Below are positions 4,029 to 37,105 of a stretch of DNA of 64,000 bases, piece after piece; position 1 is the first letter of the stretch; each line of letters opens with the position of its first letter. The translations under genes were made by a program, and so were the position numbers. This DNA is from a virus. The stretch lies in IMG/VR virus record IMGVR_UViG_3300036546_000248; one strand, 5' to 3'. Under the pieces are notes generated by a model. It ran no database searches. It had not been told where the DNA came from and saw only the letters and a list, made by a program, of their open reading frames with translations.

Positions 4029-5492
4029 ATGTCGCTGCCCGTACCTAGCGAGAATATTAAAGGCATTGAATGTAAACACGCGGTTTACACACTGCCGAAT
4101 GACGATGGTGATGGGGATGCCCTGATCGTCAAAGAAGTCATTCACACCAAAGACGGTCAATTGATCCCGAACCTCAAGATCATCGAAAACTACAAGCGCG
4201 ATTTTTTCTATGCGCGTGAAGGTCAACGTAACTATACAGAAAAGAAGACTCAAGAAAAAATTAATAACCTGCAACGTTACACCTGCACCCAACGTAACCT
4301 GCTCAGACAGATTGCGCGGGCTAAAGGGGTGGGTACTTTGCGTGGGGGTTTGCGTCAGATTGCACGCGACCCTTATTTGTACGGGTGTGACATCACCACA
4401 CCCACGCTCCTTAAACGTGAATACCAACTGCGTTCTCCAGATTGCTTGTCCCCCAATGGCGTAGCGGTATTCGACATCGAGACGGATGTTGTCCACGGTA
4501 CTGAACAACCCATCCTGATGGCCTTGACGTTTAAGGACAAAGTCTACCTGGCTGCGACCAAGTTCTTTGTAGGTCAAGACGTTCGCTTCTTGGAAAAGCT
4601 TAACAAAGCCATTGAAAAGTACTTGGAGAAGTACACTAAAGAGCGCAACATTACCTACGAACTGGAGATCGTTGAGACACCCGGTGAAGGCATTCGGCGT
4701 TGCTTTGCCAAAGCCCACGAATGGAAACCTGAATTCGTCACCATCTGGAACATCGACTTCGATATCCCCAAATGCGTCAAGCAATTGGAAGCTGAAGGAA
4801 TTGATCCAGCTCAAGTTTTCAGCGATCCATCGGTTCCCGAGCGCTATAAGTTCTTCCGCTACAAGCAGGGCAACGCTACTAAGAAAACCGCTTCGGGTCG
4901 AATCGATTCGATTCACCCAGCCGAACGGTGGCACGTAGCCGAATGTCCAGCGACGTTCTTTCTGATCGACAGCATGTGTGTGTACAAGCGTATTCGAATG
5001 GCTAAGCAAAACCTGCCTTCGTACAGCTTGGACTACGTAATGAAGGAGGAGTTGTCGGGGCTTGGTAAGCTTAAGTTCGAAGAGGCCGACGAATATGCAG
5101 GGTTGGCATGGCACGTGTTCATGCAGACCTATTACAAAGTCGAATATGCGGTCTACAACATCTTCGACTGTATCGGTGTAGAACTGTTGGATGAGAAGAC
5201 CAAAGACTTGCAGCTGGTTATCAGTACCCAGTCGCGGGCTTCGGAATACACCATCTACAATTCGCAACCTCGTCGTTTGGTGGATGACTTCTATTTCTTC
5301 TGTCGTGACCGAGGCTATATCCTAGGTTCGTGTAGCAACGAAATGGTCCATGAATTGGACGCTTACGTTGTTGGCATGAATGGACACATCGTGACCTTAC
5401 CCTCTCACCAGACAGTGGATAACGGCGTCCGCGCTATTAAAGAACTGCCTGATGTAAGGACCTACATTCGTCGTCACGTAGCCGACTTGGAT
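4029..5492 (+). CDS. Split family-B DNA polymerase, N-terminal subunit (exonuclease + motif A), exon 1 (phiKZ gp82-like)
   Basis: ExoI FDIETD, ExoII WNIDFDI and ExoIII YNIFD are present. The ORF stops at ...VADLD, the first half of PolB motif A. Confidence 0.85.
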
Positions 5493-5849
5493 TAATTAAA
5501 AGTCCCTTCAGACTGGAAGGTCTGAATGTAAACTCTTCTAATTGCTGGAAACCCCTGAGAGCTGTTCCACCACTGCGAGGCGAAAGCCAAAGCCACGGTT
5601 TGAAAACGGAACGGATTGGGCAACCGTGGGTCCTAAGGACCCCTTTAGCAGCCAAGCTCCTCTATGCGAAAGCAGTGGAGAAGGTTCAACGACTATCCCG
5701 CAAGGGAGTAGGGACAAGCGTCCCGAAACGGAGAGCACCCGACCCACCGTATGGTGAAGGGTGATGATATAGTCTCGGCATGTGGGGAAAGCCCACAGCA
5801 GTGCTTGATCGCACGGGGTAAAGTGTTGCGACTTAACCCGAAGATACCG
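5493..5849 (+). mobile_element. Group I intron (IA2-like), no internal endonuclease ORF, 357 nt
   Basis: P1 GGAU/GUCC with a U.G wobble at the 5' splice site, AATTGCTGGAAA (5540-5551), CAGCCAAG, GTTCAACGACTA (P7 5691-5695), P7.1/P7.2 hairpins, GATATAGTC (P7' 5770-5774) and terminal G 5849. Splicing restores DLD-IVSTYPN in frame. Confidence 0.9.
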
Positions 5850-8448: not shown

Positions 8449-8456
8449 GTAATATA
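8449..8456 (-). promoter_or_regulatory. phiKZ-type early promoter (TATATTAC)
   Basis: Exact TATATTAC with an AT-rich upstream tract, 57 nt before ATG 8392. Confidence 0.75.
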
Positions 8457-8470
8457 GATCTGAGATTTTT

Positions 8471-8926
8471 TTATTTCGGTAGGCTCAAATCGAAGCATTC
8501 TGCGAACTCCAAGACGAACTCATCCATCCAATCTTGTACGTACATCACGTTCCAGTAAGGGGTGGCTTGAAGTCGTTTAAAGTCCAGTCGGGAAACTCGT
8601 TGTAACTGACCCAAGATCCTCTCGATTCTCCGCATGAGGAAAGGAACCTCCTCCACTTGGGTTTGTACAGTTTCACGATAGACCACCAAATACGGATGGT
8701 CTTGGTGCACACTAAGCTCACTGACAACCACCTCGGCTAAATACAACCGAGCCCCTATGTCCACTTGGGCCTCAATCGGGAGGATGTGGCCATAGTAGTT
8801 GTAGAGGGAATCGGAAGTCAGGTTGAGGTGTGGGGTGCGCGGTACAATCTGGGTAACAAACCGATCAAAGTCGGTAATCTCACGATTATCAACTTCAAGA
8901 ACCAAATACCTGATTACACTCGCCAT
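8471..8926 (-). CDS. Hypothetical protein
   Basis: 151 aa, AGGAG RBS. Confidence 0.7.
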   Translation of the reverse strand: MASVIRYLVLEVDNREITDFDRFVTQIVPRTPHLNLTSDSLYNYYGHILPIEAQVDIGARLYLAEVVVSELSVHQDHPYLVVYRETVQTQVEEVPFLMRRIERILGQLQRVSRLDFKRLQATPYWNVMYVQDWMDEFVLEFAECFDLSLPK

Positions 8927-8935
8927 GGAGCACTC

Positions 8936-9364
8936 CTACGTTTTTGGTTTTGCACAACTGTCGATCTGTTCTAAGAGAGCCACTTGGGCACGCGCTTTAA
9001 GGTACCGACAGGCCTGTTTGCGTTTGCGCCTAACCCAATGTGCGTCTGGCGGAAGTTGGTTATGCTTATTAGCCGAGACCTCTTGGGTGGACGTGTTGGA
9101 GAACAGTAACCACAACGGATAATGTCTCAGTCTACCCCCTACCGCTCGCAACACTATCGCTTGGCGAAAGGTCCGACGAGCCGCAGGAGATGCATCTTTC
9201 GGATTCTCAAGGTAGGTGCGAATCAAATGGGCGTTACTACCTTCGGGTTTGACACGACGCACGCGAGAATCTTTCGTACAACCCGCCCGCATAAAGACCA
9301 CTGGCTGTTCAGGTTTGGGTTCAGTGAAACCTAATGCCGACAACAAAGAAGCGGGAAACTCCAT
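8936..9364 (-). CDS. Basic hypothetical protein, paralogue of 7284-7676
   Basis: 142 aa, AAGGA RBS, WVRRKRKQA. Confidence 0.65.
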   Translation of the reverse strand: MEFPASLLSALGFTEPKPEQPVVFMRAGCTKDSRVRRVKPEGSNAHLIRTYLENPKDASPAARRTFRQAIVLRAVGGRLRHYPLWLLFSNTSTQEVSANKHNQLPPDAHWVRRKRKQACRYLKARAQVALLEQIDSCAKPKT

Positions 9365-9420
9365 GTGACATCCTTAGTTTAAGTTTATTCAAGGTATAGT
9401 TCAAAAAAGTACGATATTAC

Positions 9421-9595
9421 TATGACTACAGGCAATGAACATTCATTGCTCACGAGGAGGTGATCCACTGAGGGGTCTGGTCCTGCCGAGACGGCACCAT
9501 CCAGCCCAGTACCAGCGCCTGTATAGTGACTGCTGAGAAGCAGCCATGACTTCAGCCTCTAAAGCCCTCACCCGAAGGTGAGGGCTTTATGCTGC
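9421..9595 (+). ncRNA. Candidate structured small RNA / minigene with a perfect anti-16S tail match
   Basis: TATG start motif, nested hairpins, AGGAGGTGATCCA at 9455-9467, 13-codon mini-ORF 9422-9463 and a terminator at 9561-9590. Confidence 0.5.
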
Positions 9596-10063
9596 TTAGG
9601 GCTTTTGGTGACAGAACGAATCGGGCCAATAGTGCAGGACTGCATCCATGGTGGTGGACTTGGCTTTGACTAACGAGATCCCTTCGAAATGCGGGAAGAA
9701 GAGTTTCTCGTAACGGGGGGTACTGACCTCCACTGTAATCGGTCGACAGTCTTCGCTGGCGACGAAGAAGACGATGTCCTGACTGAGCAACGGACTCTCC
9801 AACCACTGCTGAGGGGGCTTTAAACCCCAGCCCACGTAGCGAGTCATCATTGCCTGATACATCTCAGGTGTGATGCCAGAGGTGGCGATTGGGTGAACAA
9901 AATAGTCGGGTGAATTGAAGCCTTCGGGAACTTCGCACATAAACTCAATGTTACCCAACTGAGAACGAGCCAACGCATAAGGGAATGGGGGTGGGGCGTT
10001 CAGTAAAACGGGTTCTGGTGCGGGTTGTAGAAAGTCTACTTTACAACGTACTAACACGTACAT
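9596..10063 (-). CDS. Hypothetical protein
   Basis: 155 aa between an early promoter and a terminator. Confidence 0.65.
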   Translation of the reverse strand: MYVLVRCKVDFLQPAPEPVLLNAPPPFPYALARSQLGNIEFMCEVPEGFNSPDYFVHPIATSGITPEMYQAMMTRYVGWGLKPPQQWLESPLLSQDIVFFVASEDCRPITVEVSTPRYEKLFFPHFEGISLVKAKSTTMDAVLHYWPDSFCHQKP

Positions 10064-10112
10064 GGATGCTTAATCCTCGTTGCGTTTAAACAAGTATGTC
10101 ACTTGCCTATGG

Positions 10113-10120
10113 GTAATATA
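10113..10120 (-). promoter_or_regulatory. phiKZ-type early promoter (TATATTAC)
   Basis: TTTGAAACC-TATATTAC upstream of 10063. Confidence 0.75.
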
Positions 10121-10184
10121 GGTTTCAAATACTTTTTACTGGAAGGGGCATAAAAAACATCAGGTGAGTTACCCCACCTGAGTC

Positions 10185-10643
10185 TTAAAGGATGCGGTTG
10201 TACAGGTAGATGTGGACGGGAAGGTCAATGTCCGTCAATTTCTCATGGAGGAGGGGGCGAAGGAACTTAATGTAATCAAGCCCCCCATAACCACAACCCA
10301 AAGGCGGAAGCCCCAGTTCTGTGATCCCCATCTCTTTATAGTTCGCCACAAGGTAATCCAGCCCCTCGATGACGTACTCTGGTTTAGACGGATTTTTCCA
10401 GTGTGCTTTGGTGGGAAACAATAGGACCTGATGACGTGACTTTGGGATCTTATACAGTTGGGGTTGCCCCACCTTCAATTCACCCTTGTCACACAGATCT
10501 TTGTAGAAGTCGAAGAGCCCCCTCACCCGTTGTTTCATGGCCAATGCCAACCCATTCCCCATCACCCCTACCGTATTAACCGGGGCTGTGATAGTTTGCA
10601 ACCGGGTATCAAACAAGGACCCTTCGCCTTCATACACGATCAT
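10185..10643 (-). CDS. Macro-domain protein (ADP-ribose processing, DarG/TARG1-like)
   Basis: GSLFD, PVNTVGVMGNGLA, LFPTKAHWK and LPPLGCGYGGL motifs. Confidence 0.85.
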   Translation of the reverse strand: MIVYEGEGSLFDTRLQTITAPVNTVGVMGNGLALAMKQRVRGLFDFYKDLCDKGELKVGQPQLYKIPKSRHQVLLFPTKAHWKNPSKPEYVIEGLDYLVANYKEMGITELGLPPLGCGYGGLDYIKFLRPLLHEKLTDIDLPVHIYLYNRIL

Positions 10644-23729: not shown

Positions 23730-23737
23730 ATAATATA
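23730..23737 (-). promoter_or_regulatory. Early promoter variant (TATATTAT)
   Basis: AAAAAACAAACC-TATATTAT upstream of the nvRNAP beta gene. Confidence 0.65.
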
Positions 23738-34458: not shown

Positions 34459-35848
34459 CTTTGATGTTTCTGCTATGTGAACCAACTTACACAACTGGAC
34501 TTGTTGTAAACTGATTTAATCTACCTAAAGCCCATGGGGTGTTATAAACGAATGCCCACGGACCTACTTGTCGAATGACATCCTTCTTAAGGGTTGTCGT
34601 TACAGCTTTCTTACTCAGACCTTGAGTGGTGTGGAACAGACTGGCGCTCTTAAACACCGAGACTTCGCCCGTCACCACATTCTTGGCCAACACTTCTTTA
34701 GGACCTCTACCCAAAGCTCGATCCAAAGACTCTTGGTCGATTTCGGGCAAACCTTCTTCCTTATACGCACAGACATAACGTTTGTTAACCAAACGCAAGA
34801 CATCGCCTCTGGACATACATTGGAAGATGTGGCTGGGAAGTGCATCGATAGCACGCCCTAAAAGACCCATCGAAGGGTATTCCTGAACTTCGTTGGTCTG
34901 GATATCTAAACACAACACTGGTCGTGAAGGCTGTTGACCCAGACTATCCCTTTCACGGATACGAGCTTTGTGAAGCTGTTCGGGGATTCTATCCTTTGTT
35001 CCATGGTGGGTGAGTACCCACCCATCGATAGGGATTCCTTCCTTAATGTGCTTCCAAATCACCTCAGGTTGATACCCGAAGTGCTCTCCCGCATGGAACA
35101 GGTCTCGGAGGAACATACACACACCGTCCTTATCAGCCAAAATCCGCGGACGTGATTCTGACTTAAAGAGTGCAGCGTGTATATTGTTAACCTTAACCGT
35201 TGCCCATTCGAGGTTTTCTACGTCGTTATTGGTACAGTCTCCATCGATGTGGTTCACTGTTAACTGACTAACGTCCCTATCCCACGGTAAGTGTGCCAAG
35301 GCCACCATCCGATGAACGCCGAACGTTGGCATACTGCCATCCAACATTCTAACGTTAACCGTGATGTAGCCGTCAAGGTTGACGTAGTAATTCTTCTCAA
35401 CGCCTTCGGAGTCAAAGATCCTACCGCACCGAGAAGCCATATACCCGTCAGTGCCCGGTATGATCTTCAAATCCATAACGTATCCTTTTCTTTATTTACA
35501 CATAGCAGAAACGCACGAGTCGTTAATTCGTGGTTACCTGTGGTCCAGACAGATAACTTCCTCACTTTCATGAGGCGGTAGACTATATCTTCTTCCAGTT
35601 TCCCAGAAGCTCCCTGTTTCGAATGTCACTTGACACCCTACTCTACTCGGTTCGTCTCTCGACGCCTTTCGATAGTCGTTGAACCTTGTCCGTAACTTGT
35701 CTCCCGACAATTTGTAGGACCTTGGCTGCTGATTGTCCAATCTCGATTCTTTTCAAACCATGACGTTTATCGTTTCCGATTCCGCTTTGGTGAACCAAGC
35801 TCTAAGGAGTTTCCAGCAATTTAAGGAGTTTAATGACGGCAATACTCT
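34459..35848 (-). mobile_element. Group I intron (IA2-like) carrying an HNH endonuclease, 1390 nt
   Basis: P1 GACGGU/GCCGUC with U.G, P10 AGAGUAUU/GAUGCUCU, AATTGCTGGAAA, AATCAGCAGCCAAG, GTTCAACGACTA, AAGATATAGTC and terminal G 34459. Confidence 0.92.
34487..35476 (-). CDS. Intron-encoded HNH homing endonuclease (I-HmuI-like)
   Basis: YMASRCGRI, VHRMVALAH and VNHIDGDCTNNDVENLEW, then repeated C-terminal DNA-binding-like modules. AAGGA RBS. Confidence 0.9.
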   Translation of the reverse strand: MDLKIIPGTDGYMASRCGRIFDSEGVEKNYYVNLDGYITVNVRMLDGSMPTFGVHRMVALAHLPWDRDVSQLTVNHIDGDCTNNDVENLEWATVKVNNIHAALFKSESRPRILADKDGVCMFLRDLFHAGEHFGYQPEVIWKHIKEGIPIDGWVLTHHGTKDRIPEQLHKARIRERDSLGQQPSRPVLCLDIQTNEVQEYPSMGLLGRAIDALPSHIFQCMSRGDVLRLVNKRYVCAYKEEGLPEIDQESLDRALGRGPKEVLAKNVVTGEVSVFKSASLFHTTQGLSKKAVTTTLKKDVIRQVGPWAFVYNTPWALGRLNQFTTSPVV

Positions 35849-37105
35849 ACCGTCAAAATCAGCATTCATACCCCCTAGTACTAGGACTGATAAGCTCACT
35901 GTATTGACGTTGATGTCTTCACTCTTGATGCGGGTGACGTACAGGCGTTGCGCCGACAAACGGGTCAACGTAGGGTTACGTTGGAAGATTACCGGGATGC
36001 CCTTACGAGGCGATTCGGCGATCATTTCCTTGAAGATCTCATCGATCAGAGGATGGTACCGCAAGGTGTGTTCGAACAACAGCTTGTTGATTTGCTTGGG
36101 CGAATACCCACGATGGAGCAGTTTGGCCGTCAGGTGAGTTTTGAACACCATGATGGACAGGGACCACGGGAGTTCCAGTTCCTCATGATGGTGTTGGTCT
36201 GAACGCGAGGTGATTACAGCCCGGAAGCTGAAATGGTCACGAGAACCAAACACGTGTTTACGCCACCAACCTGTTTTACTACCCAACTGCGCACCGATGA
36301 ACGGGGCATAGTACTCAGATAGCATCACGATGGCCGTGACGGTACGTTTCTCGATTTCCTCTTGGCTCAGTTTGGTTTGACTGTGCACAATGCCGCTGAT
36401 GGTGTAAATCGCATCAATGGCAGGGCGCATGGTCAGGTCACCGTACAGGCCTGTAGCTGCCTTCTCGATGATGAACGCCGCTTTCGACGGGATGGGCACC
36501 TTATGGCTGAAGATCAGATCGCGGTACAAAGCAATGAAAGTGCGTAGGTATTCCACCTTACGCTTCTTCTTATTGTCGTACAGCGGCCCTTCCTCCGAGC
36601 ACATCAGTTGCATGATACTGTCGAAGTTGTGGTAGAAAGAATTCAACCCCCGCTTATACCCTTGTGCCGAAAGGCTTTGGGTGAAGAACTCCATCTTCTT
36701 ATTCGGTGGGCGATATCCCGGATTGATCAACCAGTCCAGTAGACTGACGCTCTTGATCGTCATCTCGGACTTCAAGATCACGTAGACCCAGGGGTTGATC
36801 AGACGTTCTACCCCTTGAGGGGCAGCAATCCACAACAACGCCTCCAGCGGCCGTTCCGTAGAAGGCAGGCAGAAGTGGTTACAGATTGGACAACGTACGC
36901 CAACGTTGTACTGATACTTCAGGTAGCCGCAATCGCATGAAGGTACGATATCAAGCGACTCACCAGTGTACTTGGTGATTGCGAGGTTGTGGAGAGCGTC
37001 TCGGTCCTCTTTGCTGTCGATTTGATAATCGTTAATGATGAGCGGTACGCTGGTCAGTGAATCAAATAGCTGATCGTGGTTCACGATCTCTGCACAGACA
37101 CCCAT
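35849..37105 (-). CDS. Non-virion RNAP beta' subunit, N-terminal part, exon 1 (phiKZ gp55-like)
   Basis: SCDCG...CPIC zinc site, RKHVFGSR.HFSFRAVI, QRNPTL and NADFDG. The spliced product is 476 aa. Confidence 0.9.

Follow-up and report, generated by a model that had tools for sequence, protein, structure and literature searches.

An uncultured nucleus-forming jumbo phage carries, on the plus strand and among genes of the opposite orientation, a unit of about 165 bases that has an exact complement to 13 bases of the 3′ tail of 16S rRNA and a CUG where a start codon would be expected. Comparison with relatives supports the view that this is a conserved, structured, stand-alone RNA unit, as far as its sequence allows one to judge. 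Tentatively, and by analogy with the bacterial rre RNAs, it can be regarded as a conserved RNA gene whose folded product is untranslated and may bind the anti-SD tail of the host 30S subunit through the 13-base complement. The analysis took up an earlier note that had singled out positions 9421–9595 of the window (the whole stretch of DNA analysed, 64 kb in length) as a candidate ribosome-binding small RNA. The coordinates of the features are collected in Table 1.

Genomic context and distribution

The phage encodes the nuclear shell protein chimallin (phrog_4795), and within the window there are also genes for several RNA polymerase beta subunits in split form and for a DNA polymerase of the phiKZ type, the latter with about 44% identity to the nearest cultured phages. 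All ORFs called between 814 and 13124 lie on the minus strand. The RNA unit extends over approximately 9424–9592 of the plus strand and sits in a 231-base gap between the genes 8936–9364 and 9596–10063. The description of a stand-alone plus-strand unit, given in the earlier note, is supported by the comparison with six relatives.

The only Rfam matches that reach the gathering score in the window are two group I introns, both away from the RNA unit. The intron at 5483–5798 (plus strand, 61.1 bits) lies within the stretch of exclusively minus-strand called ORFs, and that at 35559–35858 (minus strand, 79.8 bits) is located at the 3′ end of an RNA polymerase beta-subunit ORF and adjoins an HNH endonuclease ORF (34487–35476). 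A search of the window for tRNA and tmRNA genes with ARAGORN gave none.

Five IMG/VR records (G001–G005) contain a single copy of the element each, and a further copy is present in a metagenome contig (L167), so that with the window seven sequences are available. Two of the IMG/VR records have terminal repeats and a length of about 222 kb, one being rated complete. The RNA unit is 89–90% identical to its counterparts in G003 and G002; for the 142-aa gene next to it, the respective values are 68% and 56% at the level of DNA and 67% and 51% at the level of protein. On the far side of the unit, the relatives have different genes, of 155, 227 or 251 codons, or carry an insert of about 760 bases; a shared TTA marks the end of the conserved block in every one of them.

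The element was also sought more widely. A blastn search with 9300–9700 against 50,697 phage records gave no match, and the flanking proteins and their alignment, used as queries, returned only the same five IMG/VR contigs, as did an 18-mer from outside the motif when searched in IMG/VR. In the metagenome collection, the 18-mer was found at six loci, comprising one new variant, one known sequence and four chance matches. The model R1 gave nothing below E 0.9 in five cultured jumbo phages (including a Phikzvirus), from which the 12-mer was absent as well. Finally, a 19-mer had two matches in 185,579 species genomes, both due to chance and situated in coding DNA, and therefore offering no clue to the host.

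The protein product of the 142-aa gene had no match in Pfam, PHROG, NCBIfam or the Atlas; it has 11 relatives only, the more distant of which (P0007–P0011) are 60–73% identical and come from Logan contigs of up to 62 kb, and its structure model (pLDDT 81) gave no named structural match. The 59-base spacer that separates this gene from the RNA unit (9365–9423) shows an identity of 100% in the four nearest relatives, 93% in G003 and 77% in G002, and may contain promoters for both directions. Two genes from the RNA unit, at 10185–10643 of the minus strand, a macro-domain protein is encoded (Pfam PF01661, E 2e-07; phrog_335).

Table 1. Features of the RNA unit and its surroundings (positions in the window).
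Feature	Position	Strand	Basis and remarks
142-aa gene	8936–9364	−	Constant divergent neighbour of the RNA unit; adjacent in 7/7 sequences
ATATTAC box, promoter-like (resembles the −10 part of phiKZ-type early promoters)	9414–9420	+	Count and placement in the window
Outer stem, 5′ strand UACAGGC	9427–9433	+	Pairs with 9517–9523; MFE and consensus fold; invariant 7/7
5′ hairpin AAUGA-ACAU-UCAUU	9434–9447	+	Extendable by G-C pairs; MFE and consensus fold; invariant
Motif hairpin CUCA...UGAG	9449–9472	+	G9454-C9468 and GGA/UCC inside, loop GGUGA; invariant
AGGAGGUGAUCCA	9455–9467	+	Exact complement to 13 bases of the 16S rRNA 3′ tail; invariant 7/7
CUG in the place of a start codon	9468–9470	+	Spaced 47 nt from the ATATTAC box and 7 nt from AGGAGG, downstream of both
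Helices 4 and 5: GGG/CCC, CUGG/CCAG, UGCC(G)/(C)GGCA	9473–9507	+	Covariation and G.U pairs
Outer stem, 3′ strand GCCUGUA	9517–9523	+	MFE and consensus fold; invariant
GNRA hairpin CUGCU-GAGA-AGCAG (9530–9543) on a GUG/CAU base	9526–9547	+	MFE; covariation
CCUC, internal anti-SD-like bases	9556–9559	+	Pairs with GAGG of the motif in an alternative fold; invariant
Intrinsic terminator hairpin AAAGCCCUCACC-CGAA-GGUGAGGGCUUU	9561–9588	+	MFE; covarying stem pairs
AUGCUGCUUA tail after the terminator	9589–9598	+	Conserved even where the next gene differs

Complementarity to 16S rRNA

The motif AGGAGGTGATCCA (9455–9467) is found exactly only once in the window, and 100 shuffles gave no copy of it at all. 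Its reverse complement is identical to ...TGGATCACCTCCT..., a stretch near the 3′ end of the 16S gene; the reference was a Cryobacterium gene located with Rfam RF00177, which ends ...GGCTGGATCACCTCCTTT and may differ from the 16S of the host. Thus, the perfect 13-nt complementarity proposed earlier was borne out against a real 16S 3′ end, and a G.U pair at G9454 could extend the match to 14 bases. Two further claims made of the motif proved correct. It is far longer than the corresponding matches at the RBSs of genes, which comprise at most seven contiguous motif bases before the called starts of the window, and no start codon follows it at RBS spacing: ATG, GTG and TTG are absent 3–11 nt after AGGAGG, a CTG being found there instead. 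In all seven sequences, the start-codon place reads CUG. According to calculations, the duplex of 9455–9467 with a free complement has an energy of −23.7 kcal/mol and the cost of opening is about 5.8; the net pairing energy with the free 16S tail is about −18 kcal/mol, and the median for the best site in front of called genes is −7.0.

When both strands of the genomes G002, G003 and G005 are considered, each holds one copy of the exact motif, which is also the longest 16S match in each of them. The absence of a second exact copy from these three relatives means that the phage itself offers no equally good target. The motif is invariant in the seven sequences, and so is the whole region 9421–9476, which is why the comparison cannot single the motif out.

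In IMG/VR as a whole, the 13-mer followed by a non-G base is common, with an estimated 390 or so stretches. Among 120 such loci examined, ATG, GTG or TTG stands 3–11 nt downstream of AGGAGG in 61, often together with a long frame; the remaining loci are mostly inside long frames. Therefore, the 13-mer by itself is usually an ordinary strong RBS or a piece of coding sequence; the present copy is set apart by the coincidence of the longest 16S match with a missing start codon and a missing gene. Since a GGA-loop-UCC hairpin over the SD leaves only about 4–5 further bases to match 16S, and since there are about 15 such hairpins per genome, a 13-mer would arise by chance, on a rough estimate, in a few percent of genomes.

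A site of a similar kind was met on an unrelated 32-kb viral contig (L048, IMGVR_UViG_3300025018_000390), with the motif at 251–263 of the locus, minus strand, where AAAGGAGGTGATCCA provides 15 bases complementary to the 16S end, again with no start codon at RBS spacing. A few bases after the motif, there is a terminator-like hairpin with a T run. This may be another orphan ribosome site.

Predicted fold and covariation

The minimum free energy (MFE) fold of 9421–9595 has −73.3 kcal/mol (z −4.53), and none of 200 shuffles is as stable. Most of the stems listed in the earlier note are found in it, namely the terminator, CUGCU-GAGA-AGCAG, UGCCG/CGGCA, UACAGGC/GCCUGUA and CUCA/UGAG, the exception being CUGGU/ACCAG. 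Both the MFE fold and a double change in L015 favour the pairing of CUGG 9477–9480 with CCAG 9501–9504 rather than with ACCAG 9511–9515, although CUGGU/ACCAG can still form by means of U.G pairs. Four of the sequences (L003, L004, L006 and L015) have CCUGGUACCAGC or a near variant at window positions 9505–9516, containing the palindrome CUGGUACCAG; in these, CUGG 9477–9480 could pair with either CCAG, and the observed changes permit both.

The terminator that was expected at the end of the unit belongs to the MFE fold, and its stem pairs covary; it escaped a simple scan because only three U follow the hairpin. It is a two-way terminator, serving both the RNA unit and the opposite-strand gene that ends at 9596.

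In the alignment fitted to R1, standard pairs occupy 99.6% of 273 cells. C9477-G9504 is replaced by U-A in L015 and C9533-G9540 by U-A in three of the seven sequences. In the terminator, two stem pairs are double-changed in three of six sequences (UC/GA to CU/AG), with CGAA or UUCG as the loop. Moreover, G9473-C9507 is G.U in five of the seven, and L006 has an insertion and a deletion 12 nt apart which together keep the helix 4/5 arm. The inner hairpin of helices 4/5 has the loop GAGA or GUGA in two relatives, and the loop of the 9530–9543 hairpin is GAGA in four sequences and GUGA, GGGA and GAAA in the others, thus always GNRA; a single C.A cell occurs in this hairpin in L167, where A9529-U9544 can form instead. 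In formal terms, 2 of 39 core pairs covary, a score that 7 of 500 shuffles reach, with the seven sequences being closely related. The earlier note had proposed to search related phages for the motif within covarying stems: the motif does recur, unchanged, in all seven, and the covariation is confined to the body and the terminator. Three helices, namely the outer stem and the hairpins at the 5′ side and over the motif, are invariant in the seven sequences and are therefore neither supported nor opposed by the comparison.

The statement that the motif is displayed in a loop holds only in part and is not robust. Five of its 13 bases, GGUGA, do lie in a loop, but GGA/UCC is paired, and the predicted ensemble varies with the 3′ end. 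If the RNA ends at 9590–9592, the ensemble prefers the pairing of GAGG with CCUC 9556–9559 together with AGGUG/CGCCU (P 0.5–0.8); if it ends at 9598, GCUG 9592–9595 of the tail can pair with CAGC 9553–9556, and the displayed fold reaches P of about 0.8. The RNA may thus exist in two interchanging forms, one with the motif exposed and one in which its own CCUC conceals it.

Early-gene leader layout

The box in front of the unit is one of seven exact copies of ATATTAC in the window, where 3.0 are expected and none of 100 shuffles reaches seven. Five of the seven copies face a gene in the right orientation, and four of these are situated 50–60 nt before the called start. In the available part of PMC7058600, TATATTAC is given as a predicted promoter of phiKZ/201phi2-1, and the available part of PMC11512511 places an AT-rich early motif of 201phi2-1 about 10 bp before the transcript start. 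For the present unit, we infer from the sequence a plus-strand transcript start at about 9424–9430. The box reads CAATTAC in L015, and the upstream TTTNAAA part, seen at 10113 and 57462, is poor at 9414–9420. A scan for sigma-70 promoters found 0 sites in 8800–10300. On the minus strand, ATATTAC/ATATTAT boxes are present at 8449, 10113, 23730, 39241 and 57462, each before a gene and with an A-rich stretch upstream, often TTTNAAA; the box at 23730 has one mismatch and otherwise looks the same. These five look like early promoters of this phage.

The leaders behind the minus-strand boxes at 8449, 10113, 57462 and 23730 each form two hairpins, the first directly downstream of the box and the second over the SD, and reach an ATG or GTG 49–60 nt after the box. 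The 5′ half of the RNA unit consists of the same parts in the same order and with like spacing, that is, the ATATTAC box, the 5′ hairpin and the SD hairpin, and three real RBSs (before ATG or GTG) share the CGAGGA...UCC design with the motif hairpin. For these reasons, the motif should be seen as an extreme member of a house style and not as an isolated oddity. The unit differs from the leaders in that they end in ATG or GTG and a gene, whereas it has CUG, no conserved frame, and a terminator 90 nt further on; the leaders match 16S over at most 7 contiguous bases and the unit over 13. The likeness at the level of sequence is weak (z 0.9–2.5), as it is among most leaders.

The same layout is the starting point for an alternative, which is considered unlikely, according to which the job of the RNA resides in its body (helices 4–6, perhaps acting with the 142-aa protein), the unit originated from an early-gene cassette, and the 16S match is a leftover RBS lengthened by chance and by the hairpin. 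The early-leader layout of the 5′ half, the GGA...UCC hairpins over the SD at three real genes, the restriction of covariation to the body and terminator, and the constant linkage with the 142-aa gene are all in keeping with it. However, the leader-like half would be dispensable to such an RNA, and it is the most conserved part, with 9421–9476 invariant in 7/7; the lost start codon and the longest 16S match per genome would make an unlikely pair of accidents, and the 142-aa protein bears no sign of RNA binding.

A second alternative, distinctly less credible, is that the RNA is a decoy for a factor recognising the SD hairpins of early messages, either a host protein of the CsrA/RsmA type or a phage regulator, and thereby times early protein synthesis. 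Early leaders fold their SD into small hairpins, and the RNA repeats this layout without a gene. CsrA-type proteins bind GGA in or next to a hairpin loop, and the GGA of the RNA is placed in this way on an RBS-like hairpin, which gives it a likeness to CsrB/RsmY/RsmZ. But these sponge RNAs carry many GGA motifs and there is a single GGA in 9424–9592; the hairpin loop is GGUGA and not NAGG as in the leaders, and a factor of this type would not need the UGAUCCA extension.

Strand and transcripts

The promoter-like box and the covarying terminator would give a transcript of 160–170 nt. Eight RNA-library runs contain the region as contigs without strand or ends, at a depth of 2–12; they extend across the inferred start and into neighbouring genes, the libraries may include DNA, and neither uncovered parts nor contig ends carry evidence. 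Contigs that begin within the 142-aa gene and reach into the element come from X15 (9060–9525), X17 (9271–9506) and X18 (9325–9592). These contigs, the good folding of the minus strand (z −4.14) and the conserved 59-nt spacer could be accommodated if the element worked on the minus strand, as the leader of the 142-aa gene or as a read-through spacer, with the plus-strand RNA pairing with that transcript as an antisense or cis element. Such an arrangement is very unlikely. The contigs are strandless and possibly derived from DNA, with ends that follow the conserved block, and perfect antisense pairing requires neither sequence conservation nor internal covariation. Moreover, all one-sided changes give G.U on the plus strand, and the 13 G.U cells correspond to C.A on the minus strand; together with the compensatory changes and the GNRA loop variants, which like the G.U pairs fit the plus strand only, they favour a plus-strand RNA, if on thin support.

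Reading frames

No conserved reading frame was found on either strand of the seven sequences. The frame from CUG 9468 comprises 22, 13, 22, 22, 36, 7 and 13 codons, with stops that differ in place. A 34-codon frame on the minus strand was rejected, as it has stops in L005 and L167. The 13-codon mini-ORF overlapping the motif, to which the earlier note had drawn attention, does exist (ATG9422 to TGA9463) and is intact in 7/7, but nothing marks it as coding because every base of it is invariant. Its ATG has no SD and follows the ATATTAC box by only 2 nt; judging by phiKZ-type promoters as treated in the available part of PMC11512511, it is probably upstream of the transcript start. The stalling minigene suggested on the basis of this frame is therefore unlikely. 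Least credible of all is a tiny gene, whether a peptide from CUG 9468 on a very strong RBS or a leaderless ATG9422-TGA9463 minigene stalling at AGG-AGG-UGA, for, despite a CUG exactly where early genes start and the weak translation of the rre RNAs from a GUG at the equivalent place (PMC5711450), the CUG frame ranges from 7 to 36 codons while the base changes keep base pairs.

Comparison with known small RNAs

rreB, a small mRNA of Bradyrhizobiaceae 165 nt in length, is complementary to the 16S end over 17 bases; it starts with GUG, has a frame of 14 codons and co-sediments with 30S subunits in Bradyrhizobium (PMC5711450). A 14-nt version was mainly in the soluble fraction and mostly not ribosome-bound, and a GUG-to-UAG mutant was still in the ribosome fraction and was longer-lived (37 vs 10 min) (PMC5711450). 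As to the motif, the 14-nt version comes nearest to the phage RNA. A 20-fold overproduction of 30S-binding rreB did not slow growth (PMC5711450), a result that speaks against a simple sponge. The function of rreB was not found in the study of Hahn et al. (RNA Biol 2016; PMC5711450).

The phage RNA resembles the rre RNAs (rreB of Bradyrhizobium and rreR of Rhodobacterales; PMC5711450) in that it is predicted to form an independent unit of like size (about 165 nt), bounded by a promoter-like box and a terminator, and in the extension of AGGAGG at its 3′ side by UGAUCCA, complementary to the 16S tail and partly in a hairpin. The two differ in several respects. The rre RNAs have 16–17 complementary bases including three 5′ of AGGAGG, which mattered in rreB (PMC5711450), whereas the phage RNA has 13 and lacks those three. 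They start with GUG (rarely AUG), whose G ends the match, and have a conserved frame of 14 or 18 codons; the phage RNA has CUG and no conserved frame. They are encoded on bacterial chromosomes, and the phage-borne RNA has a larger folded body. Since match length, start codon and conserved frame all fail, the phage RNA is not filed as a member of the rre group; among the rreB constructs, the GUG-to-UAG mutant, which has no start codon, comes nearest to it.

In Rfam, the element touches a single family, RF01867 (Caulobacter sRNA CC2171), with 20.6 bits in the window, 23.8 in G002 and 19.4 in G003 against a gathering score of 75; the model also matches weakly in five unrelated control genomes, and its alignment covers only the motif and the terminator of the phage element. 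The family consensus ...AAAGGAGGUGAUCCAGUG... has the same motif followed by GUG, and by its layout CC2171 looks like the rre RNA of Caulobacter; a literature search found no paper that makes this link. The available part of bioRxiv 10.1101/2022.01.24.477521 describes the function of CC2171 as unknown.

In phiKZ-like phages, sRNA005 of 201phi2-1 and ten other small RNAs are on record, with functions that are unknown according to the available part of PMC11512511. As in the present case, they are short promoter-to-terminator units in jumbo phages, some of them intergenic, and complementarity to 16S rRNA is not mentioned in that part of the source. No paper on a phage RNA of the kind described here was found in the literature search, whose coverage left out most subscription journals.

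Possible mode of action

Of the mechanisms considered, binding to 30S subunits is the most probable, though far from assured. If the RNA does bind them, the following course of events can be proposed. The plus strand would be transcribed from about 9424–9430, probably early and by the virion RNA polymerase. A 30S subunit would then pair with the motif, the seed lying, by analogy with rreB, in the GGUGA loop or in unpaired CACGA. As a start codon is absent, the subunit could not initiate efficiently and would hold the RNA, and the RNA so held would be long-lived and would occupy that 30S subunit. Its role might be to divert 30S subunits from host messages, to park subunits for early phage messages, or only to stabilise the RNA itself. 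A general block of the anti-SD tail would also hurt the phage because its own genes use SD sites. This use of SD sites, the result with the 14-nt version of rreB, and the inseparability of the motif from the invariant 5′ half are the weightiest points against 30S binding; that the ensemble often hides the motif also counts against it. A more specific version, which is rather doubtful, supposes that a start-less copy of an early leader plugs the anti-SD tail of free 30S subunits, toggles between its hidden and exposed forms, and in this way chooses messages during the building of the phage nucleus.

Nucleus-building jumbo phages must win host ribosomes for messages exported from the nucleus. 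To our knowledge, only proteins have so far been found to do this for such phages, and an RNA pairing with the mRNA-binding tail of 16S rRNA would be a new route to host ribosomes. It would be cheap to test, since nearly all bacteria share this motif; the 16S tails of E. coli and Pseudomonas, for instance, carry the same 13 bases. Should the more specific version given above hold, the RNA would be the first member of the unexplained rre class to be encoded by a virus, and it would provide this class with a function. In the phage RNA, which lacks a start codon, ribosome binding is separated from the peptide, and this could make the question of rre function testable. If the motif is idle, the unit still shows an early-gene cassette turning into an RNA gene.

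Finally, two of the runs, X3 and X5, are filed under single organisms (A and B) and not as metagenomes, and they contain the stretch at more than 99% identity with a depth of 40 and 12–15, respectively; a culture carrying the phage may therefore exist.
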